From the UHGV virus genome UHGV-1374697: a DNA stretch of 64,000 nucleotides; one strand, written 5' to 3'. A model generated the notes under the pieces. It was not told where the DNA came from. It did not search any database and saw nothing but the letters and a program-made list of their open reading frames with translations. The position numbers and the translations under genes were made by a program. The stretch is from a virus. Every line of letters starts with the position of its first letter. Position 1 is the stretch's first letter. Positions 11,301 to 63,585 of this stretch are shown one piece after another.

Positions 11301-12308
11301 AAGGTTGGCGAGTTCAGCAAAAACATTCCCAGTAAATGAAGGTGCTGAATCAGAGAATTCGCCAACGCCAAGCTCCCCCACGCTCGTTTGGCTGGGGGTT
11401 TTCTTCTGCAAGCCCTCTGTCGAAGCGGCCCGGTATTTGTTGTAGAGAGACTTCGCGGCTCGGTAGTTGTCAATGTCTTCGCGCCTAATCGTATTGATGA
11501 CGCTTTCTATTTCTTCTGCGGTGTAAGCAATAGGTGCGGTCTCGATGGCTTGCGCCGTAGGTTTACCAGACACAACATCTAGATTCGAGTTGAGGTAATC
11601 CTTCCGGGCCTTTTCCATTGTGTTTGCAATGGATTTGGCCACCGCCTTTGCGTCCCGGTTTCTGTCCGCGGCAATGGCGAGGAACTTTTCCGTTACCACG
11701 GGGTTCCCATCTTCTCCACTTCCGAAGCCAGAGCGGGATAAGAAGGCGGGGTGCGTAGGCGTAAGCTCGGAAGAAGACACAACGGTAATTCCCGTATTGT
11801 TGGCAAGCTTCTTAAGGGCCTCACTATCGCCGCGGGAAGCGGCCTTCAAATCAACCAGCGCATCTTCGCCGCGGTCTACGTAATCTTTCGCGTCATCAAT
11901 CTCGACGAAGTTGAATCCACGGTTTCCACGGTTCAAGACACCGAGGGCTTTCTGCTCTTCCGCGGCTTGCCATCCGGCTTCCGTATGCGCCCTGCTCTTC
12001 TTGTCCCATTCCGCTTCATTTGCATCCTTGGCTTTCTGTGCCTGTTCCTTCTCAAAGTCATCGACAGACTTAAAGAGGAAGGTGTCATAGTCTGCGGTCG
12101 CCGTCGCTCCCTTCTCGGCACGGGTCTGTCTCTTTTCCGCTAACCTTTGCTCGCGGTCCAGTGCTTTCTGTTCTCGGTCCTGCTGTTTCTGCGCTTGCGT
12201 CTCTTGCCACGCGGCGTGCCTTTCTGCGGCACGTGATTCACGCGCGATACTACTTCCCGACGTCGGAGTGAAGTCGGACATATTGGCGGTACTAAAATCG
12301 ATGGCCAT
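2382..12308 (-). CDS. giant multidomain virion or ejection protein (3308 aa) with a zincin-like HExxH motif; candidate polyvalent or internal virion protein
   Basis: Uninterrupted 9.9-kb ORF at the distal end of the late operon, after other large structural ORFs. HEVIH (VLHEVIHLIDRHL) is encoded at 7507-7521, reading on the minus strand. The N-terminal 150 aa are highly charged and coiled-coil. I found no DxDGD (double-psi beta-barrel RNA polymerase) or T7-like RNA polymerase motif by eye. Confidence 0.85.
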   Translation of the reverse strand: MAIDFSTANMSDFTPTSGSSIARESRAAERHAAWQETQAQKQQDREQKALDREQRLAEKRQTRAEKGATATADYDTFLFKSVDDFEKEQAQKAKDANEAEWDKKSRAHTEAGWQAAEEQKALGVLNRGNRGFNFVEIDDAKDYVDRGEDALVDLKAASRGDSEALKKLANNTGITVVSSSELTPTHPAFLSRSGFGSGEDGNPVVTEKFLAIAADRNRDAKAVAKSIANTMEKARKDYLNSNLDVVSGKPTAQAIETAPIAYTAEEIESVINTIRREDIDNYRAAKSLYNKYRAASTEGLQKKTPSQTSVGELGVGEFSDSAPSFTGNVFAELANLSKSPSKMFQLVRDYGDYLSRNSGSYISGNRALTDISGMVEAGNLDLNQRPQVKNPDGSVSTVRSMSIGVDDKEYLIPTVSEDGRLLTEKEAIEQFRKTGKHLGVFDSPESATAYAKQLHTDQAKLISKKEKPVEDRIREQIETADKIVRRLEEDYTGLPYLELRDALLNPEAAASALLSLVPGADMDAIRARAKVIAEEVHRQKDRPLTVENPEQIGMSEAILEAVATRFPGVPKSALRQAGVTKLIQDYTAKATPKGTLMDAVKGALANYRSTAGQIADVLTFQPDNSVGKYADPMSLMEWRKGTKRGTWWYGMPGGPSFEVGPERLKEYMDQYHIESTRDALNSLSHAARMGDLGVGRGSLFVYNPHTKEVDTNATLELNPNALYNDKLMDQSIEALRASGADEGLINRTIEKFQNLRKKSAQELVKDNIALDETLGTLRDTWLGSGLQFNPILTESMKHLDKHLSFKNFYNEQKEAGKSDEDILSAWQEKGQDTINSVLRGLQIGTHKAIDLGTSTAYGALLFAQNAVGSRAAMEHTRTLWDQLNKKQEAEAELVRGNILADYTAEIANLGYQMVATAGAGKVGGLAGRALERTALNKFMKATANVVAKRAEALVPAARPGLAGRLSGTIQRNLDNLAALNLERAGAGAGVNLSIISQVAPNAYSDIFYTIYDREMEGKEPTAENLNRAQSIANMRALFGAALVSTGSTLINNRAGMDSYMRKIIGAKNLRGQSPFQTLERKIAGWRSKPFKEMNTKEKTFAVASYLYSTSKAVVEGATEELTDEFQEWAFTELVKNGEISESSIATTDQVISTGMKIAFLGGIGGYVGSHLAGEGNIRFQTEAVPTLDVKDATSMLPDITKDASNIIEETGKAITKNNVPESLVETGKKVIEIAGEKGDAAEVAREWVDKSIAHESLAVSDETRKAWVEGATRMGISNFTQFRNLVERASEIYTYEGSAAASSFMAEAINDLPNTLSFPNKENLDTMRTMLSEALDAMGDRVQVIEVDDDLSIITTGDEDLDAAINVINGLTEPTATTATTATAEPKESPVAIARKERDNAIAPVAAMVETGVVTPSSVETVDNMDAAIASFDSNTGAWLSYGTPLERGAKLVSLNEMTGINAPMITSNTGETIVIAPHASMYNTGEGGTPSTKWGDKVSALNLPTDGTGANAYGILSDLQVNASPAQAAAIDGVLRALHAAGLDVAIRATNAPANISSPASITYMNGTDGKLVGGVIDLYVNRDNPIESVTGTVLHEVIHLIDRHLRTTNTDYSQRMDRIRSAIAENYNNIVDSLSAMYDASVDINEMNAIAALASDLNYGLRGPDEFASVAFSNPVMNFMVAEASGDNITITDLARYAEAAGGRKPIHVRLVEWLKDLIRDVRQTADDMDGTTAAERAAEWDSYVARVADMTPGKWFDMPRTPSWKVDDTDYTMGNGVDYFNPMAYETDMTRRLSFGLGAEIIGTNAGNWVTSIKNGWLGVTKNWDKAGINVKSEEQKLIVLEQMANVNAAYERSIKRIDKIGDMLQRRADNLGWDAATRKKWSKSILDMSGNMDNDIDPETVARINAEAQAEVRQHEQTRDFRIALAKKTVTDAVNRHAEAVRLANSLALNSEGRLEINDMMRRIKDMSGKGYGAMLDKQVALPMLSQQIHKSLSDLGSRISATGNANLEATYFGLARDTQNYLADMINEVDSPFSMDELLDRWSNLRNDYLYAESTNHPAIAPMIQDIAKARAEAKQIIREAKEDFYAATKKAGVTRAGVATPAGSVWLKRDNAILNARRQKQAEYMAKRDAAEQWLLSQGVVGQLVHNVIADSRKEIAATQISIAKLIGDSRMADNAAEMNYLHRTYMAVGRHAGDFTRTMKDIIANPNGELAQKYDGLTKLLQEAAISHAEAHQRELSENVSQVLDNMQALAALHDELKLPLVSAPPRASANYKLLFEGVAKNYRNREILDFIQNNFGAVQMLADLRDGHNISAIYDKAMSMIAQADYRTKSKMTETKETLDRNARDSFLAEVFSDLPGETIADKIGSLESPASVASEVNKAIPTIPTSAIDQIWNTPDMNAAERLDKTLNLLRGQAGILMRANNMGNVISATDLKVLQYPELSRLAVNDAMKAIDEVLSKKRTNEDALAQRKRLPEWQRKAMYELSDLTIGDAIGTLQNTLSMQSKIAVNQLLADEYASVLKAQGVVVPPNSTNRTSDMVEISLKNTKNALNGMYADKDVADAIYHIYRPSDDILNSRTDDYKKVREYWQKSGKGQGWWSKAGGLANLSVLIASPNSTLRNLYGTVAQMTHAGALPFTGSKDIANLVGDWVQLRKLRRLSQGKDLASQASADRLLAAEDRYNEKIRYWQELGLLDAGQGEFLRNVWKSDEFSKMAGEFEEVNEDSFFKLAEALNEKQERTKGEVAKDAAKMAGKVVAWPIKTMSFAYGLPDAAAKIVLFTNQRAIADTQLKVQLARAMGKDNPNARDQILLDASQTTQSWDAYVDRYTAHMVKSLLPTGSRTPSWVKTLNIVAAPFFMFQYHTFQSVAYNLGHAIGEGVDGVWAINNGMKKEGAYLLGRAILRAAGSFGTISATSAVSSWVARQIIASVLGDDDDRKIIDDAEVMRKLADSGLIPDYDKFGDLIGIIDMKRHEFEYLNLEYMNPFKTIRVLAKTLPSLFMDMDVDKWGMNKVAELKNLLENTVLEESLLLNTATELFNEEDFNYKHSLSGDESVNVLPAVGNAILLAAGLNPSFGSGHTWQVLERFATVANKKIPVYGWAVKSGKQMFSDTPDMSAAAYGLQTLGAGLRRPKDLTEALAAGLKNANAAVTKSKRMSVLRPDFYKRMESGVDVESMEAAETADAVKNFTKLVNSVRFVTEITNMLDPALRKEVLASAIESSGMSAKTYGAAMKGIMPYIISPQAGREAIAKLNRELQKSNTTDEGKRLIEEQKKLIINLMRKGSIQIDGALSAEEIHNRMKQ

Positions 12309-19743: not shown

Positions 19744-19988
19744 TGATGTTGTTCCTTTTCGACGAAGGTAATCCCCGTGTCGGATTCTTCCGTCGTGCAT
19801 TTCTTAATCTTGTCACGAAGTTCGATTGCCATTTTGAGGGCACAGTCCCTTGTCGGAAGTCCCTTCTCATCCTCGCTCCTGTGATAGGGGAACATAGCGA
19901 TACGGTAGTTTCGATGAATCACCGCAATGATTCCTGCTCGCGGGTATTCCATTAAGAAGGTTTCCAGTAGATATTTATCGTTGGTCAT
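19740..19988 (-). CDS. small paralog family member 1 (82 aa, divergent)
   Basis: Member of a tandem array of six overlapping genes of about 80 aa. It shares the G(I/F)xxV...F.YxR..DE...T...A.K.A..L..KI.K arrangement with the others. Confidence 0.5.
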   Translation of the reverse strand: MTNDKYLLETFLMEYPRAGIIAVIHRNYRIAMFPYHRSEDEKGLPTRDCALKMAIELRDKIKKCTTEESDTGITFVEKEQHQ

Positions 19989-20223
19989 TGTTGTTCCTTT
20001 CCCGTTTAACGAGTTTAAATCCTTTTTTGGTTTCGATAATCATGCTCTTGTCAATTTTGCGGACTAGCTTCTCGGTCAGCTTCTTGGCTTGCTTCTTGGT
20101 GAAATGTCCTTCCTCGCCTTCCGTGCAATAGTAAAAGGCGGCAACGCAACAGTTTTCAAGCATGACCCGGAAAAATCCGGCAACGGGGTCATCTACGGTG
20201 GTAATATTTAGAGTGTCAGTCAT
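19975..20223 (-). CDS. small paralog family member 2 (82 aa)
   Basis: MTDTLNITTVDDPVAGFFRVMLENCCVAAFYYC...FTKKQAKKLTEKLVRKIDKS. About 75% identical to member 4, and overlaps its neighbours by 8-14 nt. Confidence 0.6.
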   Translation of the reverse strand: MTDTLNITTVDDPVAGFFRVMLENCCVAAFYYCTEGEEGHFTKKQAKKLTEKLVRKIDKSMIIETKKGFKLVKRERNNNDQR

Positions 20224-20452
20224 TAGTATTGTTCCTTTTAAGTTTGATTCCCATCTTTGTTTCTATGACCGTGCTCTTCTCAATTTTGCGGGCGAGCTTG
20301 TCAGCTAGTTTCTTAGCTTGCTTCTTGGTGAAGAAGCCACTTTCCTCTGCCACGCAATAGTTGAAAACGGCGACGCAACTTCCCATGTGCTTGACGCGGA
20401 ACATTCCGCTAGTAGGGAGGTCATAAATACGGGTATCTGAATCGTTATTCAT
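20216..20452 (-). CDS. small paralog family member 3 (78 aa)
   Basis: ...GMFRVKHMGSCVAVFNYCVAEESGFFTKKQAKKLADKLARKIEKS. Overlaps both neighbours by 8 nt. Confidence 0.6.
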   Translation of the reverse strand: MNNDSDTRIYDLPTSGMFRVKHMGSCVAVFNYCVAEESGFFTKKQAKKLADKLARKIEKSTVIETKMGIKLKRNNTND

Positions 20453-20681
20453 TGATGTTGTTCCTTTCCAATTTGATTCCCTTTTCGGTTTCGATAATCA
20501 TGCTCTTCTCGATTTTGCGGGCGAGCTTGTCGGCTAGTTTCTTAGCTTGCTTCTTGGTGAAGAAGCCACTATCATCTTTCACGCAATAGTAAAAGGTGGC
20601 AACGCAACAGTTTTCAAGCAGGACCCAGAAAAATCCGATATCGGGGTCATCTATGGTGGTAATATTTAGAGTGTCAGTCAT
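20445..20681 (-). CDS. small paralog family member 4 (78 aa)
   Basis: MTDTLNITTIDDPDIGFFWVLLENCCVATFYYCVKDDSGFFTKKQAKKLADKLARKIEKS. Confidence 0.6.
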   Translation of the reverse strand: MTDTLNITTIDDPDIGFFWVLLENCCVATFYYCVKDDSGFFTKKQAKKLADKLARKIEKSMIIETEKGIKLERNNINE

Positions 20682-20913
20682 CGATGTTGAAAATGATTTG
20701 GTTAAGTGATACTCCCTCGATGGTACAAACTGTCCCTCTGCTAACTATGTAGCGGGCAATCTTCGTTGCCAGTTTCTTTGCGGAATCTCGTGTCATATAT
20801 CCTTGTTCACCAGAGCCTGTGCAGTAAAGAAAATCTGCAATGACACTTCCACAGTGAGTTACTCGGAAGAATCCAAATCCTTTGTCTTCTAAAATAGCTA
20901 CTTTGTCGTTCAT
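20674..20913 (-). CDS. small paralog family member 5 (79 aa)
   Basis: ...GFGFFRVTHCGSVIADFLYCTGSGEQGYMTRDSAKKLATKIARYI. Has the same architecture but is more divergent. Confidence 0.55.
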   Translation of the reverse strand: MNDKVAILEDKGFGFFRVTHCGSVIADFLYCTGSGEQGYMTRDSAKKLATKIARYIVSRGTVCTIEGVSLNQIIFNIDD

Positions 20914-20916
20914 GGT

Positions 20917-21171
20917 TTATTCGTCTTTGATTGTACAGTCCGTCGGGTAAAGGTCAATGCCCCTTTCTGTCATAACAGGATTCGTGTGGATGAGATGGCG
21001 AGCAACCATCTTCGCCATTTCTATAGCCCTTTCGCGCGTGGGATAACACTGTTCCTTCTCGTCTCCCTCCCGACAATAGTTAAAGATGGCAAAGGTATCT
21101 CCATCATATTTCACCTTGAGGATTCCTACTCTCTTATTATCTACAATACTAATCTCGTTGGTCTTCTCCAT
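20917..21171 (-). CDS. small paralog family member 6 (84 aa)
   Basis: ...VGILKVKYDGDTFAIFNYCREGDEKEQCYPTRERAIEMAKMVARHL. A divergent member. Confidence 0.5.
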   Translation of the reverse strand: MEKTNEISIVDNKRVGILKVKYDGDTFAIFNYCREGDEKEQCYPTRERAIEMAKMVARHLIHTNPVMTERGIDLYPTDCTIKDE

Positions 21172-23249: not shown

Positions 23250-23315
23250 CACAACGGAGAACCCACGGAACCCATTGTGACCGTTTGGCCGTGGGTTCCG
23301 TGGGTTCCGTGGGAG
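23250..23315. promoter_or_regulatory. inverted and direct repeats of the GGAACCCACGG / CCGTGGGTTCC motif in a 159-nt intergenic gap
   Basis: gagaACCCACGGAACCCattgtgaccgtttggccGTGGGTTCCGTGGGTTCCGTGGGag. Two 13-bp inverted arms with an extra direct copy. The same motif recurs at 53279-53330, 54020-54045, 55600-55640, 56987-57047, 60906-60930 and 61010-61034. Confidence 0.5.
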
Positions 23316-25132: not shown

Positions 25133-25486
25133 TTAGATTGTTTGTGGCCGGAAGATGTCACGACAGAAAGTGATACCTTTCGGAGTTAGTTTACTTTTAG
25201 TCTGTCTCCTCGACCCCCTCACTCCCTCGTATTCAATATACCCTTTTTCTTCCAGCTTGCGCAGGATAGAGTAAAGAGAAGATATGGGGATGCGAGTGCT
25301 CTCACTTATTGTAGGATTCTCATGTTTCTGCTCGAAGCCATTGGCGTGCATGTACAGAAGAACACGAACATAGTCGAGAGGGAGCGAAGGGTCAAGAAGG
25401 TCAATATTCAGAAGGAGACCGAGCAAGGCTCGCTGATTGCTCTGGCCCTTCTGTATGGTTCTGGTTGTGGAGTAGGTCGTTCTCAT
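25133..25486 (-). CDS. PadR-like winged-helix transcriptional regulator
   Basis: 117 aa. ISSLYSILRKLEEKGYIEYEGVRGSRRQTKSKLTPKG matches the PadR recognition helix and wing pattern (tlYpxLxrLExxGlixxxxxxxxxrrrkyYxlTxxG). Confidence 0.5.
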   Translation of the reverse strand: MRTTYSTTRTIQKGQSNQRALLGLLLNIDLLDPSLPLDYVRVLLYMHANGFEQKHENPTISESTRIPISSLYSILRKLEEKGYIEYEGVRGSRRQTKSKLTPKGITFCRDIFRPQTI

Positions 25487-25959
25487 ACGTCAGAGCTATC
25501 TAAACCTAAATGGGACAACAAGTCAACTATGTTGTACGCAAATCGTGTTCTACGCCCGCGAGGGTCACTATCATCACGATACCGTACACGTTGAACTTTG
25601 CCCCGCTTGAAGAGGGTGGTCAGATACGCAGGGGACTTTAGTCCCGTAGATTCCAATGCGGTAGCTACATCAACGTACCCTTCCGGGATATTGTCATATA
25701 GGCCTTTGACCTGCATCTGAATATATTCATTGGCTCCTTCCCCTTCCCAGTACATGGTATGCCCACAACGAACGTGTTTGACCTTCAATCGGTTCAGGGC
25801 GTGAATTACCCACACGGAGCTTCTCCCAATTTTATCGGCAATCTCCCCGGTGGCAATGTAGCCCTTCGGTATGTTCTTTACCGGGGGAGTACTATGCCGT
25901 GGCCTCCGTGGATGTTTCAATCCGGGATGGACGATTAGTCCTCTACTGTTCTTCTTCAT
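25483..25959 (-). CDS. putative HTH DNA-binding protein (158 aa)
   Basis: IATGEIADKIGRSSVWVIHAL is HTH-like. It overlaps the PadR-like gene by 4 nt. Confidence 0.45.
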   Translation of the reverse strand: MKKNSRGLIVHPGLKHPRRPRHSTPPVKNIPKGYIATGEIADKIGRSSVWVIHALNRLKVKHVRCGHTMYWEGEGANEYIQMQVKGLYDNIPEGYVDVATALESTGLKSPAYLTTLFKRGKVQRVRYRDDSDPRGRRTRFAYNIVDLLSHLGLDSSDV

Positions 25960-53927: not shown

Positions 53928-54090
53928 ACTTTTATGAATGAGGCCGGTGGAGCGTGGACGGCGTAGTCCGCACCCTCGTGGCCTATGGTTTGAATTGCCG
54001 TCCGGAGGTCGAACGGTGTCCGAGGCTACCACGGGTTCCGGGGGTTGTCAAGTAGAATCTACGACCCTTAACAAGCATGTAACAAGCAAG

Positions 54091-54562
54091 ATTTAGAGTA
54101 GTTGTTACGGTAAGTTATTGAGTATATACGACTTAACAACTATAACAAGCATAACAAGCAAAAACCGTAGTTAAACGTGTACGCACTCGTCCTCGTGCCG
54201 TATGGCGGTCGCGCTACGCGCTCCGCGAACCATGTTTTTATGATAGGGAAAGGGCTAACTCGGAAAGCGATTAAAACTGAATGAGTTAGCGTAACAACCT
54301 ATCAAAATCTCGATGTAAGATGTTAAGAGCCAAGTACTTAACAGCTGAAGCTCGAAAGAAGTTGTTACGCTGGGTCATTGATAATAAACGACTTAACAAC
54401 TATAACAAGCAAACAAGCAAATTCTACAGACTCTATATATGTGTATATAAGGCCTCCCCTATACCCCTCTTTTCTTATATAACTACTATTTTTGCTTGTT
54501 TTGGTTGTTATAGTTGTTAAACTATTAAAAAAGAAGGGGTTAGCGTAACAACTACTCTAAAT
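54091..54562. repeat. AT-rich iteron block bracketed by 19-bp inverted repeats; origin-of-replication candidate
   Basis: ATTTAGAGTAGTTGTTACG (54091-54109) and its reverse complement (54544-54562) flank several copies of AACAACTATAACAAGCA-type units. A 22-bp perfect direct repeat CGACTTAACAACTATAACAAGC sits at 54129 and 54389, with inverted copies near 54497 and 54585. The block is adjacent to the primase-helicase gene. Confidence 0.5.
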
Positions 54563-54937
54563 CATGCTTGTTATAGGTTGTTAGTAGATGTTACAAGATT
54601 GAGAATGAACGGATTAAGAGAACAGCATTGGGCGTCAGCCACTTATGAGTATGGGGTTCTCCGGCTAAAGAAAAACCCTTCGGAAGCAGGACATGCCTAC
54701 CTCCGAAGGGCTACGCCTTGGGAACATCAACCTAGGAGATGGGTGACAGGAGGGCGTTGCTTCGAGTAGGACTTACCTACTACCTTACTGCCTACCCTCC
54801 ACGCGTTGCCCTCCTGTCTGGCCGTATAATACCAGCCCCATCGAAAAAGTCAAGACAATCCTCTGCCAATATGTTATTTTGTTATGCACGCGTATATACG
54901 CGCCCACATGTGTGTACGCCCCCTTTCCAAATCTCCT

Positions 54938-55060
54938 GAATTTAATCGAGCGTCCTACCCTAGAACGCGCCGCAACCCTCCCTCCGCTACAACTATCCAC
55001 CCGGACCCCGTCCCCTCCTTCTACCCCGCCACACTGGATTAAATTCGTAAACGCGCCATC
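54938..55060. repeat. copy 1 of a roughly 70-90-bp direct repeat family in the control region
   Basis: GAATTTAATCGAG(C/G)GTCCTACCCTAGAACGCGCC(G/A)CAACC...CCGCTA(C/T)AACTA. A second copy lies at 55417-55481 with the adjacent A-segment permuted. Confidence 0.5.
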
Positions 55061-55231
55061 ACACCAATTTCCTCTTGACTTTCTCCCCTGATGTGATATG
55101 TTGCACCTGTTCGCTCCGAACGGCAACCGAACCAGCTAAGCCCAATGCTTCTGGCTATCCCAAGCGGGGAATCCGCATGCCACAGGAGCGGACTAAACAC
55201 TCTCCTTTCTACAGGCATTTTCCATAGTTAC

Positions 55232-55276
55232 GCCCGTGGGTAGTCTCGTCAAGCTACCTGCGGGCTTTTTCTTTGC
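55232..55276 (+). terminator. plus-strand rho-independent terminator inside the non-coding region, marking the possible 3' end of an ncRNA
   Basis: GCCCGTGGGTAG-tctcgtcaag-CTACCTGCGGGC-tttttctttg. No protein-coding gene lies upstream on the plus strand. Confidence 0.4.
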
Positions 55277-55389
55277 CGCCAAATCCGCGAGAGCCGCTCC
55301 GTCGCATTATGCCCGCCGTGCGCAAATTTGGTCGATGGTAGTGCCCTATCTCCTGTTTCATGACTAATGTACCCACTCGCTACCTATAC

Positions 55390-55481
55390 CCCGTCACACT
55401 CTTGTAAATTTGCCCGAATTTAATCGAGGGTCCTACCCTAGAACGCGCCACAACCGCTGGTCCGCTATAACTACCCGCCCG
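55390..55481. repeat. copy 2 of the roughly 70-90-bp direct repeat family
   Basis: See copy 1. The two copies are more than 85% identical over about 65 bp. Confidence 0.5.
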
Positions 55482-55859
55482 AAGAGTATGCCCGCCTTCT
55501 AGGTTGATACGTCCCCCCGTGGACTAGCCGCGTGTCGATTTTTCTTGACTAGGCGGGGATGGGGTGCAGACCAGATGAGGCTGAAACAGACCAGAGGTCA
55601 TGACCATCATGTTGAACCCACGGAACCCACGCACCCCGCGAAGCGGCCATGACCATGTACCCACCCATGTACCCGCCGCATGTCGATTTTGCTTGACAAC
55701 CGACAACCGACATGCCCAGAAGGGTACTCCCTCCCCCGTACCCCACGGAAAAAATTTGACCCAACTATTTACTATGGGCCGCGTGCAACCCCGGAGCCTG
55801 GGAAACCGTGGTGGTGTTTGGATTTTCTTGGTATCCAATTTCCCCCTATACCTACGGAA

Positions 55860-56070
55860 TCGGTGCATCACGGAACCTTTTTGCCTCTGATTGCACCGGG
55901 AACGGTATATCCCGGGGGGGCCTGCCTATCCCCCACATGCACCGGAATCGGTAAGATAGGCCACCGTGTTGCAACGGGAACGGTATACCACCTGCCCTGA
56001 ACTGCCACCGCCCCTGTCATGGGAACGGTACGCCATGCAACCCATTGAATCCTCGGAATCTGTTGCAACC
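55860..56070. repeat. cluster of degenerate GGGAACGGTA / CGGAATCGGT direct repeats
   Basis: ccGGGAACGGTAtatcc, caacGGGAACGGTAtacc, catGGGAACGGTAcgcc, plus cCGGAATCGGTgcatc, caCCGGAATCGGTaagat and cctCGGAATCtgttg, spaced 30-40 bp apart. Confidence 0.45.
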
Positions 56071-56394
56071 GTCTGATGATAAGGAACTTATGGTATAAAG
56101 AGGTCTGTAGGTCTCCGGGGGAACCGAGGGTGCAATACCTGTTTCCCACTGACACCCTGATATGCGTAACTCGTTGATACTCTAGGCAATCCGCTTCCAT
56201 ACTTCGCATAATACATATAATGCAAAATCGCATTCCGGTTTTCCTACTAATCCGATAGGAATTGAAATTGAAGGTGCTGGAGAAGGCAGGAAAGGGGCAG
56301 GGTCTTGCCCTCAAATTGTTCAACTCTGGACGGGTTAAGTATCAACAACATATGAAGCATACCCTAGGGGGTATAGGTATCCTTCCCTCATTAA

Positions 56395-56552
56395 TAGTCA
56401 AATATTGGACTAATGGCTTTTACATTTTTGTAAAAGCCCTATATCTTGTATGTCAAATTGTCACACCCCTATATCTTGCGTACCTGTAGCGGTGCAATCG
56501 GCAGGCGGCCAGTCCTTGCGGTTTTGCCGTCAGATAGTCAAATATCGGACTA
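56395..56552. promoter_or_regulatory. two near-palindromic 18-bp operator-like sites TAGTCAAATAT(T/C)GGACTA
   Basis: Sites at 56395-56412 and 56533-56552 with GACTA/TAGTC half-sites. The direct repeat CCCTATATCTTG x2 (56443-56490) lies between them. Confidence 0.45.
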
Positions 56553-56577
56553 TCTATCTTCAAAGATTGTTAGACCG

Positions 56578-56783
56578 GACTTATAAAGTTAGGCTGGACT
56601 TAAAAGTTAGGCTGGACTTATAAAGTTAGACCGGACTTAATAAGTTAGGCTGGACTTATAAAGTTAGGCTGGACTTAAAAGTTAGGCTGGACTTATAAAG
56701 TTAGGCTGGACTTAAAAGTTAGTCCAAACTTAAAATGTTAGGCCGGACTTAATAAGTTAGACGGCACTTACAAGGGAGGAATG
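56578..56783. repeat. tandem array of about 11 units of 18-19 bp, GTTAGGCTGGACTTA(T)AAA
   Basis: Alternating 19-bp and 18-bp units, with degenerate units at the 3' end. They share the GGACT half-site with the upstream palindromes. There are no unique spacers. Confidence 0.8.
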
Positions 56784-56819
56784 TTTAAGAATCCTTAATA
56801 GTTATGAATCCTTAACTAT

Positions 56820-56882
56820 CTTGAAGCCCTTGAAGCCCTTGAAGCCCTTGAAGCCCTTGAAGCCCTTGAAGCCGTTGAAGCC
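56820..56882. repeat. tandem repeat of 9 bp x7 (CTTGAAGCC)
   Basis: Six perfect copies plus GTTGAAGCC. Confidence 0.85.
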
Positions 56883-56986
56883 GCTATCCCACCACAACCG
56901 ATTGCCCGAAATTGTTCCATGTGGAACATTTTAAGGCCAAAAGATACCAAAAGAATACAAAAGAATCCCCTACACTATATATATAA

Positions 56987-57047
56987 AAGGGGAACCGGGG
57001 GAACCGGATACCGGGGGAACCGGGGGAACCGGGAATCATGGATACCG
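56987..57047. repeat. GGGGGAACCG x4 direct repeats (the GGAACC motif family) just upstream of the first early promoter
   Basis: aaaGGGGAACCGGGGGAACCGGataCCGGGGGAACCGGGGGAACCGGgaatcatggataccg. Confidence 0.7.
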
Positions 57048-57116
57048 AAGGGTTGTATGACACAATTATAACACGCAGATAGTCAGCAGGTTACAACGCG
57101 CCGGAAAGAAAACCGC

Positions 57117-57171
57117 TTGACGCACCCGGCAATCATGTTAAATTGCAATCATCCAACGGGGAACAACCCCC
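57117..57171 (+). promoter_or_regulatory. early promoter and leader-hairpin cassette, copy a (degenerate)
   Basis: TTGACG-N15-TTAAAT, then tgcaatcatcc and the hairpin CGGGG-aacaa-CCCCG, upstream of the ATG at 57215. Confidence 0.4.
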
Positions 57172-57214
57172 GGACAATGAGAACACTAATTAAATAGATA
57201 GGAGACCACTAATC

Positions 57215-57499
57215 ATGATTATCAACATCATCATCAATCGCAGGTGCGGCCTCATTAACTATGACGCCGCTACACATCTTAAAGCTATCTATGACTACGC
57301 AACCGCCGCCGGACTGTCAGACCTAGCCCGTGCGTTGGATAGCGGAAAAGAAGCTGATGTTAAGGCCGCTCTCATGCACTATGTCATCAATGGGGGTTGC
57401 AACCCGGACATCCACCACTACAACATGTTTGACTTGTGCTTATTTATCAACCGGGTGCGGTGGACGGATGAAGAAGAAGAATCTGCTGATACTGAATGA
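57215..57499 (+). CDS. early hypothetical protein (94 aa)
   Basis: First plus-strand ORF after the control region, with an A-rich leader. Confidence 0.5.
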   Translation: MIINIIINRRCGLINYDAATHLKAIYDYATAAGLSDLARALDSGKEADVKAALMHYVINGGCNPDIHHYNMFDLCLFINRVRWTDEEEESADTE

Positions 57500-57532
57500 T
57501 TTATGATTGTGTCATACAACTCAAAAAACTAT

Positions 57533-57585
57533 TTGACAACACTCTAAAATCTGATAAATTGCAATCATCCACCGGGGCAACCCGG
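57533..57585 (+). promoter_or_regulatory. early promoter and leader-hairpin cassette, copy b
   Basis: TTGACA-N16-TAAATT, then gcaatcatcc and the hairpin CCGGG-gcaa-CCCGG. It is preceded by GTCATACAACTCAAAAAACT, and AACAATAGAAAGAAATAA lies 8 nt before the ATG at 57628. Confidence 0.55.
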
Positions 57586-57627
57586 ACAACGAAAAGAAAC
57601 ACTAAAACAATAGAAAGAAATAATACA

Positions 57628-58056
57628 ATGAGCACATATACAGATCACGCAAAGAGATTCCTTGAAAATTGCGGAATCAGAATTACCGGAAAGTATAAGG
57701 GAAGATATGTTCCCTTGTGGGATAAAGAGCCGCATAGCACATGGGAAATTGTCCTGCGGCGTGAAGACCGCCGGAAGGGAGAAAAAGACGCAATCTTCAT
57801 CACGTTTTATCAGTCACACGCAGATAAGTACAAGACGCCCACCGCTTATGCCGTACTGGCTTGCCTGTGTAAGTCAGATTGTGGCTCCTATCAGGACTTT
57901 TGTGAAGATATGGGATTGCCCCTATATGACGAGGATACGGGGGAACGCAATATGGATTCCTATTGCCAGTACACAGCGGCGTGCCATGAGTACGCAGATC
58001 TTAAAACCTTCTTCACCCGCCCGGGTGAATGGGAAGAGCTGGAAGAGATTTATTGA
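57628..58056 (+). CDS. early hypothetical Cys-rich protein (142 aa)
   Basis: The start at 57628 (MSTYTDHAKRF) is supported by the conserved leader. The ATG at 57496 lies inside the promoter cassette. Confidence 0.55.
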   Translation: MSTYTDHAKRFLENCGIRITGKYKGRYVPLWDKEPHSTWEIVLRREDRRKGEKDAIFITFYQSHADKYKTPTAYAVLACLCKSDCGSYQDFCEDMGLPLYDEDTGERNMDSYCQYTAACHEYADLKTFFTRPGEWEELEEIY

Positions 58057-58122
58057 ACCTTGAAAAGATACGCCACTCTACGAAACATTTAACCACAAAC
58101 CAACAACAGAAAGAATAATACT

Positions 58123-58512
58123 ATGAAAGACATATCAGAATTACACATCAGAAAGGAAATAAAAGTAGAAGGAAACGGAAAAGTTCACCTCGCCATTGAA
58201 AGCTTTAATTCCTTGCACCGAAAAGAGTATACTCTTTCCCCCGCCATGTGGGCGGCTTCGGAAGTACTACAGGACAAGGTTTCCCGGCCGGGAAGTATGT
58301 ACCTGAAAGATACGTTTTCTATCTATCGCGTAGGTGCTTATGACGTTATGATAATTTCATCCGTGGATGAATCCCCATATTCAACCCTTGAAAGATTATC
58401 GCTAGCGGAAAAGATAGCATGGTTCCCTTTCGGCATTGAAAACGTCCAACAGGTAGAAGATACCCGGCATTCTAATTCACAACATGTATCTTATCTGCGT
58501 ATCATTCAATGA
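58123..58512 (+). CDS. early hypothetical protein (129 aa)
   Basis: ORF with the leader AGAAAGAATAATACT-ATG. Confidence 0.5.
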   Translation: MKDISELHIRKEIKVEGNGKVHLAIESFNSLHRKEYTLSPAMWAASEVLQDKVSRPGSMYLKDTFSIYRVGAYDVMIISSVDESPYSTLERLSLAEKIAWFPFGIENVQQVEDTRHSNSQHVSYLRIIQ

Positions 58513-58588
58513 ATATGAAACCCGTTAAAGCTGAATAATTACACCGCCCTAACATATTAACAATAAAACAATAGAAAGAAATAAAATC

Positions 58589-59116
58589 ATGAATACATTT
58601 CCTAAAATGCTCAATGTTACTGAATACGCCCTGATTCATGACATTCCAGAATGGGCAATCTACTCCCTTGAATACGGAGAAGGTGAAGAAGATATGGCAG
58701 ATGAAGACCTTAAAATCCTTGAAGAGTGGGAAAAAGACTACTACCCTGTTTCCTCGGTGGAAGACCAGCCGGAAGCACATTTCACCAGCACGCCCGCCTT
58801 TGGCTTGCCCTGTGACTGTGTAAAATATTATGTTCTCCCTTGGTATATAGATGCCGTCTATATGTGGGCAAAACCCGGATGCCGCATGACAAATTGTTAC
58901 CTTAAGTTCACGCTAGTTTCAGGCTCGCAGGTAAAGGTGTATCTGAACGGGCATCAAACCCTGCGGAGTGCTATCCGCAACCTGATAGGGCAGGTAGAAA
59001 TGGGGCATACTTTCACAGACGTGAACGGGCATGAAGTTACTCCAAAAGCCCGCGATATCATTAACTTCTGGATTTGTACAATGCAAGGGCAAACCCTAGC
59101 TACAGGGCGCATTTAA
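58589..59116 (+). CDS. early protein, paralog A of a duplicated pair (175 aa)
   Basis: About 60% identical to 60324..60854 (shared ...YALIHDIPEWA...TPAFGLPCDCVKYYVLP...PGCRMTNCYL...GHQTLRSAIRNLIG...GHTFTD...QTLATGRI). Has the conserved AACAATAGAAAGAAATAAAATC leader. Confidence 0.6.
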   Translation: MNTFPKMLNVTEYALIHDIPEWAIYSLEYGEGEEDMADEDLKILEEWEKDYYPVSSVEDQPEAHFTSTPAFGLPCDCVKYYVLPWYIDAVYMWAKPGCRMTNCYLKFTLVSGSQVKVYLNGHQTLRSAIRNLIGQVEMGHTFTDVNGHEVTPKARDIINFWICTMQGQTLATGRI

Positions 59117-59152
59117 CATATTAACAATAAAACAATAGAAAGAAATAAAATC

Positions 59153-59455
59153 ATGAATGAAGACGAAAAGAAAACGGCAATAGATATTTTAGCCGCTCAT
59201 ATCCGGGAAACGCGCCCCTACCTTTTCCAGTTGTCCGCACGCCATGATGAAGAGCTGGAACTAATCGCCGCACTAGCGGAAGCAACCGGAAGCAAGCTTA
59301 CCTTGCTTGTCAGGAACCGGGAATCCCGGGAAATGCGGGCAATCAGCATTGCGGACTATCGCCCTCATGAAATGGTAGTCAGCCGTGCCTTTATTTCAGA
59401 CCCACTATGCCTTGCCCTTGAGGAAGCGGGCGCAAGGATTGTGTATAACCGTTAA
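59153..59455 (+). CDS. early hypothetical protein (100 aa)
   Basis: ORF with the conserved leader. Confidence 0.5.
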   Translation: MNEDEKKTAIDILAAHIRETRPYLFQLSARHDEELELIAALAEATGSKLTLLVRNRESREMRAISIADYRPHEMVVSRAFISDPLCLALEEAGARIVYNR

Positions 59456-59492
59456 GTCCCCCCTGAAAAGTTACACCACCCTAAAAAAGTAT

Positions 59493-59550
59493 TTGACAAG
59501 ATAATAAAATCCGATAAACTAAAATCAGCAAGCGGGAGACAAGCTCCCGC
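59493..59550 (+). promoter_or_regulatory. early promoter and leader-hairpin cassette, copy c
   Basis: TTGACA-N16-TAAACT, then aaaatcagcaa and the hairpin GCGGGAG-acaag-CTCCCGC. It is preceded by TTACACCACCCTAAAAAAGTA, and the leader ATTAGAAAGAAATAACTT-ATG follows. Confidence 0.6.
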
Positions 59551-59581
59551 ATAACCTCAAACCATTAGAAAGAAATAACTT

Positions 59582-59908
59582 ATGAAAGAAATACTAAAAT
59601 TAGACTATGACGAAATGACTGTATCAGACCCTGACAAGATGACAATCTTGCCCCATAACTGGAAGGAAGATACTGCTCTCATGCTTACCGTTACGGATAG
59701 GGTATGCAAGGGAATCGAAAAAGCAAGGAAGCTACTTCCCACCCTACCCCGGGGAAGTGAGATTAAAATCAGGCTGGATTCTTGGTACATTCTGGGAGAA
59801 CTTAAAGGATATACGCCGGACTTCGGATATATTGTGATAAGACCGTTCGAAACTGCTTTTGTACTAGCCCTTTCTGATTCCCCGGAAACTATTTCTTGGT
59901 CGCTCTAA
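59582..59908 (+). CDS. early hypothetical protein (108 aa)
   Basis: ORF downstream of cassette c. Confidence 0.5.
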   Translation: MKEILKLDYDEMTVSDPDKMTILPHNWKEDTALMLTVTDRVCKGIEKARKLLPTLPRGSEIKIRLDSWYILGELKGYTPDFGYIVIRPFETAFVLALSDSPETISWSL

Positions 59909-59945
59909 TTTATCATACAACTGAAAACCTAAACAACACTATATC

Positions 59946-60269
59946 ATGAACACTCAAATTGAATTGAAAGACAACGAAATCCCGGCATGGGCATTCTACG
60001 AAAACGGCGAGGGCCTTCTGTCCCTTATCTTTTTCGCCGCATCACCTTCACATGCACGCCCCATTGCCGCCCTGCTTAACATATACCCGTGGGATGCCCT
60101 GCCAGAATTAGATGATTCTGACATTGTGCGCTTGTGGCAGGCGGTGAAAGAGAATGAGTTAGGGGACTGGTGTACCTATGACGCAAAGGAAATTAACCGG
60201 TATCTGGAACAACGGTTCTGCCAGTCAGTAGCTACAGCTTCTATAATTACGCCGCTCCCCATTGAATAA
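59946..60269 (+). CDS. early hypothetical protein (107 aa)
   Basis: An ORF. Confidence 0.5.
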   Translation: MNTQIELKDNEIPAWAFYENGEGLLSLIFFAASPSHARPIAALLNIYPWDALPELDDSDIVRLWQAVKENELGDWCTYDAKEINRYLEQRFCQSVATASIITPLPIE

Positions 60270-60323
60270 CTACGCCGCCCTATAAAATCAAACTAATAAT
60301 AAACAATAGAAAGCAACCATATT

Positions 60324-60854
60324 ATGAAGACTACAACTAAACCGGAAATACTTAAAGTATCAGACTATGCCCTTATCCATGACATTCCCACCTATGCCCT
60401 CAATTACTTGGTGTGCGGGGAAGATGAAAGCCTCGCCCCTGATGACATTGAAAACATTGAAGAGTGGAAAAAAGACTACTATCTTGCCCCCCTAGTTGAA
60501 GGCCAGCTGGTTGCTCTTCATTCTGCCACTCCGGCTTTCGGTTCACCCTGCCCTTGTGTAAAATACTATGTCCTGCCTCGCTTTATGGGGGCAGTCCTGA
60601 CATGGATAAATCCGGGTTGCCGGATGACTAACTGCTACCTTGAACTTAAGCTTACAGACGGTGGCCGGGTAAAGGTGTATCTGAAAGGGCATCAAACCCT
60701 GCGCAGTACTATCCGCAACCTGATTGGCTTGGTAGAAACGGGACATACTTTCACCGATATGAACGGCCACAATGTATCCCCCCGTCCCCGTGATATCGTT
60801 AATTTCTGGATTCGTACAATGCACGGGCAAACGCTGGCAACCGGAAGAATATAA
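60324..60854 (+). CDS. early protein, paralog B of the duplicated pair (176 aa)
   Basis: See 58589..59116. Has the leader AACAATAGAAAGCAACCATATT-ATG. Confidence 0.6.
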   Translation: MKTTTKPEILKVSDYALIHDIPTYALNYLVCGEDESLAPDDIENIEEWKKDYYLAPLVEGQLVALHSATPAFGSPCPCVKYYVLPRFMGAVLTWINPGCRMTNCYLELKLTDGGRVKVYLKGHQTLRSTIRNLIGLVETGHTFTDMNGHNVSPRPRDIVNFWIRTMHGQTLATGRI

Positions 60855-60905
60855 ACCACTTGCGGCTTGTTCCGGGGAATCAAAATTGTTCCACGTGGAA
60901 CATTT

Positions 60906-61034
60906 AAACCCCGGAACCCCCGGAACCCGTCAAATAACTCTAACCAAATAACAACGTAGAAAGACAAAGGAATAATTCCCGCCCCCGGAATGCGGGGGAT
61001 ATCGGGTGCAACGGGTTCCGGGGGTTCCGGGGTT
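60906..61034. repeat. 21-bp perfect inverted repeat pair (CCCCGGAACCCCCGGAACCCG ... CGGGTTCCGGGGGTTCCGGGG) enclosing a leader-like segment and a GC hairpin, with no ORF
   Basis: The arms lie at 60906-60930 and 61010-61034. Between them sits AACTCTAACCAAATAACAACGTAGAAAGACAAAGG (leader-like) and the hairpin CCCGCCCCCGG-aat-GCGGGGGATATCGGG. Confidence 0.6.
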
Positions 61035-61095
61035 TAACAATAAACCAATCATAAATTACAGACCGTGAATAACTACGCCGCTCTATAAAAAGTAT

Positions 61096-61149
61096 TTGAC
61101 AAGATAAGAAAATCTGCTAAACTGAAATCATCAGCCACCGGAAGGGTGG
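61096..61149 (+). promoter_or_regulatory. early promoter and leader-hairpin cassette, copy d
   Basis: TTGACA-N16-TAAACT, then gaaatcatcag and the hairpin CCACC-ggaag-GGTGG. It is preceded by CTACGCCGCTCTATAAAAAGTA, and the leader AACAATAGAAAGAATAATACT-ATG (61186) follows. Confidence 0.6.
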
Positions 61150-61185
61150 CAACTATATCAACAAAACAATAGAAAGAATAATACT

Positions 61186-61614
61186 ATGAAAGAAAATGAG
61201 ATTGAAGTATGGGGAACTACGGAAGCGCAAGACGTTTCATCAAACGCCGTTAATAGCCGAGGTGAAAAGTGCCGCATTGTGCGCACCTATGACTACTACC
61301 CGGACGAGCATGAGATACATGAACACGTCAGTATTCAGAATGCCGTTAGTATTAAACTGGTAGAGTTTAACGCTTACAAGGTGCGGGACTTGATTGAAAA
61401 TACAGAAAGGTTCCGTGCTCGTCTTTCCGATTGCACAACCACCGTTCCTACGTGCGAACCGAAAGCCGAACCGTATGCGAGAAGCAACTCTATTAGAGTA
61501 TTCCGGGAAAGAGCCGTGCAATATTATGGCACAAACTCTGATTCTTTTACTCTCTACACGGATAGAAACTTTTTGGACATTCCTATACCCCTCGTTGTTC
61601 TCTTCTCAAAATAA
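61186..61614 (+). CDS. early hypothetical protein (142 aa)
   Basis: ORF downstream of cassette d. Confidence 0.5.
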   Translation: MKENEIEVWGTTEAQDVSSNAVNSRGEKCRIVRTYDYYPDEHEIHEHVSIQNAVSIKLVEFNAYKVRDLIENTERFRARLSDCTTTVPTCEPKAEPYARSNSIRVFRERAVQYYGTNSDSFTLYTDRNFLDIPIPLVVLFSK

Positions 61615-61652
61615 ATAGGATACGCCTTTTGTCATACAAAACAAAAAACTAG

Positions 61653-61709
61653 TTGACAAGATAAGAAAATCTGCTAAACTGAAATCATCCAGCGGGGGAC
61701 AAGCCCCGC
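61653..61709 (+). promoter_or_regulatory. early promoter and leader-hairpin cassette, copy e
   Basis: TTGACA-N16-TAAACT, then gaaatcatcca and the hairpin GCGGGG-gacaa-GCCCCGC. It is preceded by GTCATACAAAACAAAAAACTAG, and the leader CCGATAGAAAGAATAAAACA-ATG (61754) follows. Confidence 0.6.
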
Positions 61710-61753
61710 AACAATAAACCAAACAACAATAAACCGATAGAAAGAATAAAACA

Positions 61754-62503
61754 ATGAATACTACATCCGCAAACCTCACCAGTGCCGCCGCCATTAATGC
61801 CCTTACTGAACGGGCAAATGCCGCTATCGATGCCGCCGTAGACAAGGTGCGTGACGACCTCATGAAGAATAATCAGAATGACTATGTCATCCCGGTGAAA
61901 AATATGGGGCATAACCTGAAACAGGTTGTCCGAGATAATGCCGCCTATGGTCTGGCCGCCTTTATTACTCACCGCATGCTGATACTAGTGGCCGAACGCC
62001 TTCGCCAGTTTGAAGGCAAGGTCTATAACGTCCGAGTAGAACGGATGATGGATGACTGTCTGGCCGCCGCAATCGTGCAAAGCGTTGATGCGGACATTAA
62101 AATCCGAGCCTATATAGATAGAAGTCACTACGCATGGCCGAAAGTGGTGTTTCATCATATCCTCCCCGGCATGTATGATAACATAAATATTTCCTTTAAC
62201 TTTGACGTCAACGAATTGACGCAGAAGCAGAAGCGGATTGTCACCGGGAGGGACATGGAGAAATTCATTGAAGGAATCTTCAATGATATGGTTCGCCTTG
62301 ATACCAAGCTTCAAGAAATTGAGGATTCAAACTACCGCCTTTGCAATTCCGACTACATGTGCGCCTATTTTACACAAGCCGTTAAAGTGGAAGAGCAAGT
62401 GGAGAGCTTGAAGCAAGGCCTTAAAAACCTGACTGGTGCACAATACTATCGCTTCGACTATAACCACACAACCGTTTCCACCCTTCCCTCCTACAGGGCA
62501 TGA
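61754..62503 (+). CDS. early hypothetical protein (249 aa)
   Basis: The largest early ORF. No motif recognised. Confidence 0.55.
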   Translation: MNTTSANLTSAAAINALTERANAAIDAAVDKVRDDLMKNNQNDYVIPVKNMGHNLKQVVRDNAAYGLAAFITHRMLILVAERLRQFEGKVYNVRVERMMDDCLAAAIVQSVDADIKIRAYIDRSHYAWPKVVFHHILPGMYDNINISFNFDVNELTQKQKRIVTGRDMEKFIEGIFNDMVRLDTKLQEIEDSNYRLCNSDYMCAYFTQAVKVEEQVESLKQGLKNLTGAQYYRFDYNHTTVSTLPSYRA

Positions 62504-62588: not shown

Positions 62589-62903
62589 ATGAGAACCTAC
62601 ATTGAAAAATTAGGCAAGGAATACATTGAAGGCAGAAAAGAAAGTGGTAAGTCTCCCTTGCGGACCGGATTATACGGAGTGCGTTTGCGCTCCATGACAT
62701 GGAAGCGCACCCGACTTTTCTCCTATCAAACGCATGTTGCCACCCTCGACCGCCTAGGTAAAGTACTGTATGTTACGACCAAAAAATATTCACAAACCAC
62801 TACCCGGCAAATGCGGGATATTGAATGGCTCGCAAGTTGCAACGGCTTTCATATCGTACCTACCGAACGCGTTGAAGATTATGCACATATCCTTGAAGGA
62901 TAG
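62589..62903 (+). CDS. early hypothetical basic protein (104 aa)
   Basis: ORF with the A/C-rich leader AACTCTAACCAAACAATCAACAAACCAAACAATAAAACACC-ATG. Confidence 0.5.
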   Translation: MRTYIEKLGKEYIEGRKESGKSPLRTGLYGVRLRSMTWKRTRLFSYQTHVATLDRLGKVLYVTTKKYSQTTTRQMRDIEWLASCNGFHIVPTERVEDYAHILEG

Positions 62904-62979: not shown

Positions 62980-63585
62980 ATGACTGCATTTGACATTGAT
63001 ATCACAGGCAGGAAACGTGATGAACTTTCCCGCACGGAATGGCTTAAACTCACAAATCGAATCAATAAACTTCAACCTGCAATCTTTTCTTTTAAGGCAG
63101 GTGTAATATCCCATAGGATAGACAGGCCTTCCGAATGGAATGGAGAAGGAACGGCATATGTTAAGCCGTACATGCGGCCCTACGCAATCGAACTGGAACG
63201 CACGCACAATGGCGCGTGCATTGTCCGGCTCCACAAGTTGAAGTGGAATGGCACGGTGTGGAAACTTGCGGAAACGGCGGCTCTGACTGTAGGGGATGCT
63301 ATAGAACTGGCAAAGCACTTTATTGCGGTGGTTAATCAGAACTGGCAGGAAGTGGGGTTGCGTATTGCGCAGGAAGCAGGGGCAGTGGACTTCATGGTTG
63401 ATGGTAGCCTCACCTATATGCGCTTCCGATTCCTTACGCCCGATAAGGAATCCATGAATAAACTTAACTCTATAAAGGTTCGCAAGCTGGCGGAACGTTT
63501 CTTCCTCCCCTGCATGGTGAAGTTTACGAGCAACAAATGGCACGACGATTTGAATCTGGAAACCGTGAAGCTCGTACTCCGTTGA
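62980..63585 (+). CDS. early hypothetical protein (201 aa)
   Basis: An ORF. Confidence 0.5.
   Translation: MTAFDIDITGRKRDELSRTEWLKLTNRINKLQPAIFSFKAGVISHRIDRPSEWNGEGTAYVKPYMRPYAIELERTHNGACIVRLHKLKWNGTVWKLAETAALTVGDAIELAKHFIAVVNQNWQEVGLRIAQEAGAVDFMVDGSLTYMRFRFLTPDKESMNKLNSIKVRKLAERFFLPCMVKFTSNKWHDDLNLETVKLVLR

Follow-up and report, generated by a model that had tools for sequence, protein, structure and literature searches.

A hypervariable array of tandem 18/19-bp units with related palindromes ahead of the early genes of a human-gut phage

The locus between the two gene arms

The stretch of 64,000 nucleotides analysed here (the window), from virus genome UHGV-1374697, represents most of the ~70-kb genome of an uncultivated human-gut phage, and carries between its two gene arms an array of eleven tandem units of 18 or 19 bp next to two near-palindromes that contain the same half-site. 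The phage lineage is frequent in human-gut assemblies, and its host is probably a Clostridia bacterium. The minus-strand arm extends from 54032 down to 1325 and encodes a VapE/D5-type primase-helicase, PolA, an SNF2-type helicase, a PD-(D/E)XK exonuclease and TerL, along with a structural module that is mostly without annotation. The plus-strand arm begins at 57215 with small early proteins, the majority of them acidic and two of them basic (62589-62903 and 62980-63585), and its part beyond the window contains an NAD-dependent ligase and ThyX. The spacer between the arms (54033-57214; 3.2 kb) is poor in open reading frames (ORFs) and dense in repeat families.

The eleven units of array 1 are arranged head to tail, each opening with GTTAG, and have a Tandem Repeats Finder (TRF) score of 258-289. 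All 11 matches of the motif GTTAGNCNNNACTTA (at most one mismatch) in the 64 kb lie inside the array, where 0.7 would be expected by chance. The near-palindromes P1 and P2, of the form TAGTCAAATAT(T/C)GGACTA, are likewise the sole matches of TAGTC-N8-GACTA in the window (0.03 expected in 64 kb). Thus both the repeats and the palindromes described in an earlier note, made from the letters alone, were recovered, and both are unique to the locus. The frame GTTAG-N-C-N3-ACT-N-A is invariant in array 1 and is followed by an A-rich tail. The strict alternation of 19- and 18-bp units claimed in that note is contradicted by the observed lengths of 19, 18, 19, 19, 19, 18, 19, 18, 19, 19 and 19 bp, although it does occur in some relatives (e.g. 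L199). The regular helical register claimed with it does not hold either, as successive units rotate by about -80°. A period of 18-19 bp corresponds to ≈1.76 helical turns and turns neighbouring sites by about -70° to -100°, so that the sites spiral round the helix and have no face in common. The period is also incompatible with coding, and a CRISPR (clustered regularly interspaced short palindromic repeats) array was rightly excluded earlier, as the units abut without spacers and no cas domains are present.

Array 1 is one of several arrays in a hypervariable zone that precedes the early promoter (Table 1). The module lies in an ORF-free zone, 350-550 bp ahead of the first early promoter, and the order of elements downstream of array 1 is conserved: the 17-bp TTAAGAATCCTTAA unit, a 9-bp array of (C/G)TTGAA(G/C)CC, 8-9-bp GATTGCC arrays, a TGTTCC-N4-GGAACA palindrome, 10-bp repeats, an AT-rich tract, the GGGGAACCG repeats and the early promoter. 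The promoter scan gave a single strong match, 350 bp downstream of the array at 57117-57144, together with weak promoter-like sites at 56419 and within the array. The idea that the units themselves form promoters (TGGACT-18-TATAAA) was rejected, since only some of the junctions from an 18-bp to a 19-bp unit create this arrangement, and relatives do not keep it.

A promoter-leader cassette is found ahead of many early genes (57117-57190; e.g. 57533 and 61096). It consists of TTGAC.-N16-17-T.AA.T followed by a small hairpin of the GGGG.ACAACCCCC type and a AACAATAGAAA leader, and several CRISPR spacers target these leaders.

Table 1. Features of the array zone and its flanks, in window coordinates
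Feature	Position	Strand	Remarks
Anchor block TCCGCTTCCATACTTCGCATAATACATATAATGC	56190..56223	+	34 bp, 100% identity in 14/14 relatives tested; left edge of the hypervariable zone; contains TATAAT at 56216-56221
Palindrome P1 TAGTCAAATATTGGACTA	56395..56412	.	18-bp dyad, half-site TAGTC(A/C)AAT
Hairpin/palindrome GGCTTTTACA-TTTT-TGTAAAAGCC	56415..56438	.	Perfect 10-bp stem; between P1 and P2
Direct repeats TTGT(A/C)A..CCCTATATCTTG	56428..56478	+	Two copies of 21 bp, 30 bp apart
Palindrome P2 TAGTCAAATATCGGACTA	56535..56552	.	Inverted in L019; deleted in 107576/125313
Leftmost protospacer (spacer sp049 of L174)	56562..56596	+	5'-TTC protospacer-adjacent motif; crosses the left junction of array 1
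Array 1	56569..56774	+	11 tandem 18/19-bp units, consensus GTTAGGCTGGACTTA(T)AAA
Array 2	56780..56813	+	Two 17-bp units, palindromic core TTAAGAATCCTTAA; 1-4 copies in relatives; also in 115270-type phages
Array 3	56820..56882	+	7 x CTTGAAGCC (9 bp); sequence and copy number variable across relatives
Palindrome TGTTCCATGTGGAACA	56913..56928	.	One further copy only, at 60887; both next to tandem GGAACC repeats
CCAAAAGAATA x3, AT-rich tract CTATATATATAAAA, then GGGGAACCG x5	56937..57047	+	AT-rich tract at 56966-56993
Early promoter, sigma-70-like, TTGACG-16-TAAATT after TG	57117..57144	+	Precedes the first early ORF (57215-57499)

Variation among relatives and constraint within the units

Relatives of the phage were anchored on the 34-bp block at 56190-56223. 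The array is present in 14 of the 19 anchored IMG/VR relatives and deleted or replaced in the other five, and it is also found in many independent gut metagenomes; its retention by homologous phages, a point raised in the earlier note, is therefore frequent and not universal. Fifty distinct array versions were obtained from gut metagenomes, and the 23 complete ones (flanked on both sides) contain 3-11 copies, the window array having the maximum. The copy number thus varies among homologous phages as had been suspected, and the order of the units is shuffled between phages with 86-99% identical flanks.

In contigs 107576 and 125313 the array is cleanly deleted, P1 and the hairpin being joined straight to the 9-bp arrays, and both flanking gene sets are kept, with a 98% identical primase and, apart from the first ORF, every early gene. 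Relatives that lack the array and keep its flanking genes are what the earlier note had said would count against it; an essential function is not tenable, and the array is dispensable, judging from these genomes. Contigs 115270 and 134760 possess a 99% identical primase-helicase, a different early-gene set and a non-homologous module of the same grammar, in which inverted repeats flank 4 x 17 bp, and contig 166360 has yet other arrays in place of array 1. The type of module follows the type of early-gene set (both differ in 115270 and 134760) and does not co-vary with the replication genes. As the array is lost or replaced beside near-identical replication proteins, it is not an obligatory origin for them.

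The palindromes outlast the rearrangements of the zone, as is evident from a threefold 42-bp insertion (L008), a replaced inter-palindrome segment (L027) and a flipped P2 (L019). This persistence fits dimer sites that would work in either orientation. The extra tandem array of L008 (L008:7540-7843, contig 087322; 42 bp x 3.2, TATCTCTTTTTGCGATATTATAGCGATATTGATATAAAATTA), placed between P1 and the hairpin, is a further case of array turnover at the locus.

The palindrome is an 18-bp dyad with the half-site TAGTC(A/C)AAT, fully symmetrical in contig 166360. Unit 9 of the window (GTTAGTCCAAACTTA) matches this half-site at 8/9 positions, L-type units agree with it to the same extent, and eight other window units carry GGACT. 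The GGACT/AGTCC core that the earlier note saw in both palindromes and units is hence real, and it is longer than was stated there. Constraint within the units was analysed with 110-115 units out of 17-18 arrays. Positions 1-5 (GTTAG), 7 (C), 11-13 (ACT) and 15 (A) are ≥99% invariant, and variation is found at positions 6 and 8-10 and in the A-rich tail. The 16 distinct cores were joined in a minimum-spanning tree, and of its 18 inferred substitution steps 13 affected positions 6, 8, 9 and 10, i.e. 4 of 15 core positions (P≈7e-5). This indicates a bipartite motif, with blocks one helical turn apart, that would be under purifying selection, and such non-uniform substitutions are not sufficiently explained by neutral slippage. 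GGACT is present in 58 units and AGTCC, the same pentamer inverted, in 23, so that 81/110 units carry one or the other, where random central pentamers would do so in 8% of cases.

Matching palindromes beside short tandem arrays are a well-known mark of regulatory complexes between DNA and protein. The constraint and the common half-site are best explained by sequence-specific protein recognition in both palindromes and units, and, as in an operator array, dyad operators are here accompanied by additional sites with a common half-site (81/110 units). The array may well be a protein-binding cis-regulatory or boundary element heading the early block, and it is so interpreted here with some reserve; a cooperative regulator or architectural array is plausible. 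It would represent a dispensable, fast-evolving cis-acting DNA module, in which a sequence-specific DNA-binding protein of phage or host recognises the half-site TAGTC(C/A)A / TGGACTA. Such a protein would sit as a dimer on the two 18-bp palindromes and as a chain of protomers on the 3-11 tandem units, each unit offering one good half-site, in either orientation, within the frame GTTAG-N-C-N3-ACTTA. With a period of 18.7 bp the bound protomers would follow a spiral along the DNA, with one turn for roughly every 4-5 units, and the resulting nucleoprotein segment could modulate or insulate early transcription and so delimit the early block.

A second motif system with a similar organisation is present in the window. 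The palindrome TGTTCC-N4-GGAACA occurs only at 56913-56928 and 60887-60902, each copy beside tandem GGAACC 9-mers and each in an early intergenic region upstream of early promoters. Clusters of this system lie at 56989-57047, 60909-60928, 61013-61032 and 23260-23315, in direct and inverted orientation, and 5/6 of the tandem GGAACC clusters are non-coding. Its recurrence suggests that a palindrome combined with tandem repeats of its half-site is a recurring regulatory grammar of the phage.

Several observations weigh against a protein-binding array. No cognate binding protein was identified among the ORFs scanned. The sole DNA-binding hit in Pfam, a winged-helix ORF of 117 aa at 25133-25486 (HTH_34/TrmB/PadR-like), was rejected as the binder, its product being 96% identical in the array-less contig 125313, and so was the first ORF (57215-57499), which is acidic and absent from the array-bearing L002 and L011. 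Neither GGACT nor AGTCC is present in 29/110 units. The spacing of half-sites differs between the palindromes and the units, so a single rigid dimer cannot bind both alike, and phages with the array deleted are viable in nature, which makes any function of the array accessory.

The winged-helix protein adjoins a 158-aa protein that resembles two tandem helix-turn-helix repeats (25133-25959, minus strand), in the middle of the late arm, and the two are possible late-gene regulators.

If protein binding is borne out, the array provides a defined bait sequence for an early regulator of a widespread gut phage lineage with few annotated genes. It is also usable for strain typing as a variable-number tandem repeat (VNTR) locus.

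Host CRISPR spacers and alternative explanations

A search of 185,579 species genomes with the two-unit motif found it in no prophage or plasmid, and the bacterial matches L172 and L173 were dismissed as unrelated two-copy chance matches. The two-unit motif also led to L174, a piece of bacterial DNA that carries cas4-cas1 and an array of 61 spacers. L174:5245-9367 (IMGVR_UViG_3300029014_000107), L184 and L186 are type I-C-like arrays with the repeat GTCGCACTCCGCAAGGAGTGCGTGGATTGAAAC, whose spacers target the window phage; this repeat is the 'DR1' of PMC8530359, reported as matching gut Clostridia genomes. At least 30 spacers of L174 match the window phage family, the well-matched ones with the canonical type I-C 5'-TTC protospacer-adjacent motif (PAM). 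Three L174 spacers, which differ in age, reproduce array units, one of them across the left junction of the array.

All 12 protospacers in the window are confined to 56562-62120, a block of ~5.5 kb whose left limit is exactly the left junction of the array. In L010, 17/17 protospacers are located within 4.8 kb to the right of the array's left edge and the 15.4 kb on the other side are free of them, and L013 has none in the 9.4 kb further right. The second CRISPR lineage (L184/L186), which has no spacer in common with L174, displays the same restriction and again includes an array-derived spacer. The array therefore marks the edge of the sole genome segment sampled by these host CRISPR arrays. 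From the PAMs, ~5 protospacers would be expected in the left spacer and ~19 in the primase-PolA region as compared to none observed, which excludes PAM density as the explanation of the boundary. The strand ratio of the protospacers follows the GAA:TTC availability, unlike that of primed adaptation.

These findings are the main support for an alternative in which the zone of repeats, bordered on the outside by array 1, is a physical boundary of DNA entry or processing. The zone would lie at or beside the DNA end that enters first, or would act as a protein-bound pause or stop signal bounding the first-entering segment. Only the ~5.5 kb to the right would then be exposed long enough for the host type I-C system to sample and attack it, and the hypervariability of the array would be driven by escape from spacers taken from it by hosts again and again, to which unit shuffling, copy loss, deletion of the whole module and the near absence of TTC PAMs may be tied. 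Confinement of two independent CRISPR lineages to a block that starts at the array, the inadequacy of PAM density, the strand ratio and the parallels in phage T5 (PMC5389539; 10.1101/866236) agree with it. However, the many contig ends in the array are accounted for by assembler breaks at the repeat, as one contig shows an exact 55-bp SPAdes overlap of k-mer size, and other full-length contigs break elsewhere or read through the array. Viable relatives have also lost the array, and its hypervariability contrasts with the high conservation of the T5 regions. DnaA boxes are not enriched (none in the spacer at ≤1 mismatch, except one within the first ORF, although the box searched may not be that of the host), the right limit of the protospacer block lies within a gene without any landmark, and selection for spacers hitting early genes could give the same clustering. 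We thus consider an entry boundary possible but unlikely. An AddAB/Chi model was rejected as well, since GAAGCGG/CCGCTTC is found near both borders of the block in the wrong orientation, although the host Chi may be another sequence.

CRISPR pressure may, even so, contribute to the hypervariability of the array zone, and the link to the CRISPR boundary may explain the fast evolution of this control region. The coincidence of array and boundary in two independent host arrays offers a handle on phage DNA entry or first exposure.

A functionless minisatellite, undergoing neutral expansion, contraction and replacement in a slippage-prone non-coding zone, would account for 3-11 copies and shuffled units among near-identical phages, for loss or replacement in 5/19 anchored relatives, and for the several short arrays of variable unit and number alongside. 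It would not account for strongly non-uniform substitutions within the units, for the maintenance of one half-site orientation or the other, or for conserved palindromes with a common half-site, and the array is kept in 14/19 IMG/VR relatives and many gut metagenomes. This explanation is somewhat more doubtful than that of an entry boundary.

The 18-19-bp unit length and the copy number are iteron-like, and the inverted repeats carry part of the repeat sequence. The locus, with an AT-rich tract nearby, lies in a divergent non-coding region beside the replication module (primase-helicase, PolA, helicase, exonuclease). An iteron replication origin, in which an initiator monomer would bind the units and its dimer the palindromes for autoregulation, as in RepE/RepA-type replicons, was hence considered. 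But no initiator gene, Rep_3-like or other, was detected, even when 6 kb outside the window were included, and Pfam scans of essentially all ORFs gave no integrase, cI-like repressor, ParA/ParB or Rep_3. The array is absent or replaced in relatives with a 98-99% identical primase-helicase, and the deletion variants keep their early genes. The half-sites are in both orientations, the period is 1.76 turns and not about 2, and DnaA boxes are wanting. A better-conserved candidate also exists elsewhere in the spacer, and an iteron origin is accordingly improbable. The binding array of the earlier note is thus supported as a half-site system of palindromic operators and direct repeats, and less so as the iteron or ParB-like centromere site it had also named; an essential origin or centromere is unlikely.

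The other candidate is located at 54080-54585, directly upstream of the primase-helicase start. It consists of nested long inverted repeats of 41 nt (90% complementarity) and 34 nt (94%), direct repeats of TAACAAGCA/TAACAACTA and an 80% AT stretch, and is kept in all relatives including the array-less ones. By its sequence, the TAACAAGCA inverted-repeat region is a better candidate for the replication origin than the array.

A role at the RNA level, in which the array and/or the P1-P2 segment is transcribed as a long leader or non-coding RNA and acts by P1:P2 pairing or as a protein sponge, is still less probable. The plus-strand array RNA (z = -4.3) and the P1-P2 segment (z = -4.0) exceed shuffled controls in folding, there are promoter-like sites upstream, and the array is not separated from the first ORF by a terminator. 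However, quasi-palindromic tandem repeats fold well by construction, and no covariation was found in the P1-P2 fold (covariation term +0.47; one compensatory pair only), changes in the palindrome centres breaking the proposed pairs. The only Rfam match, IMES-3 at relaxed thresholds, was rejected as repeat-driven noise (20.9 bits against the 55 needed).

A centromere-like partition site of a plasmid-prophage state, suggested by the likeness of the contiguous ~20-bp tandem repeats to ParR/ParG-type centromeres, is very improbable, as Pfam scans of all ORFs detected no partition NTPase, ParA, ParM, ParB, ParR, integrase, repressor or plasmid replication gene, the array is lost in relatives, and its two-unit motif has no prophage or plasmid copies in the species genomes.

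The conserved part of the non-coding spacer (2.2 kb, ~91% identity) contains two divergent promoter-terminator pairs, TTGACT-16-TATTAT leading to a terminator with a 17-bp stem (54674-54853, minus strand) and TTGACT-16-TATGTT leading to one with a 13-bp stem (55075-55265, plus strand), with an 89-nt direct repeat (54935 / 55413) nearby. Each pair may give rise to a small RNA of about 140-155 nt.

Elsewhere in the genome, GATC is found at 2 sites in the 64 kb as compared to ~250 expected, an extreme avoidance that suggests, in the host, a restriction system specific for GATC or a system linked to Dam. A giant protein of 3308 aa (2382-12308, minus strand) without any Pfam/PHROG match is encoded where the structural arm ends, and five tandem paralogous genes of 78-84 aa products lie at 19975-21171 (minus strand; 229-bp period in TRF), whose proteins display a beta-beta-beta-alpha pattern and match the Arm DNA-binding domain of integrases only faintly (E = 0.049). 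The window yielded neither a tRNA nor an Rfam family at the gathering threshold, and deposited phages gave no nucleotide-level match to the window phage. In the comparison with cultured phages PolA showed at most 27% identity and TerL had no match; PDB sequence searches with four phage proteins gave none, and no Pfam/PDB relatives of the early proteins were found.

Comparison with known systems

Rep_3-type replicons (F RepE, pPS10 RepA and P1 RepA) possess 17-22-bp tandem direct repeats together with inverted repeats that hold part of the repeat. The array resembles them in that every repeat contains a pair of conserved blocks separated by roughly one helical turn. It differs in having no initiator gene, adjacent or genome-wide, in being dispensable without co-variation with the replication proteins, in carrying half-sites in both orientations at a period of 18.7 bp (vs ~22 bp), and in lacking DnaA boxes.

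Contiguous tandem repeats are also the hallmark of type Ib/II plasmid centromeres (ParR-parC of pSK41 and R1; omega heptads of pSM19035). The likeness lies in repeats along which a helical filament of dimers would form; here, unlike in those plasmids, neither a partition NTPase/adaptor gene nor any sign of a plasmid or lysogenic lifestyle was seen. The VNTR or minisatellite loci of bacteria and phages are similar in that near-identical genomes vary in the number and order of their units, and differ in that the within-unit constraint and the palindromes of the array indicate selection on sequence beyond slippage.

In phage T7 the short-repeat arrays SRL/SRR adjoin the terminal repeat, upstream of the early promoters A1-A3. 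The order of short tandem repeats, sigma-70 early promoters and early genes is the same at the window locus, although in T7 the arrays abut a defined terminal repeat.

The stop region of phage T5 is not translated and brings together direct repeats (nine DRD copies), inverted repeats and palindromes (10.1101/866236), and in T5 CRISPR protects only when the first-injected pre-early region is targeted, acquisition being confined to that region (PMC5389539). The window locus is likewise an ORF-free cluster of repeats and palindromes beside the first-expressed genes, and CRISPR acquisition or protection is limited to an early segment in both. The T5 regions are, however, highly conserved and have paired DnaA boxes, whereas the window locus is hypervariable, deletable and without DnaA boxes. 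Taken with these systems, the array is a new sequence family of an already known kind of element.

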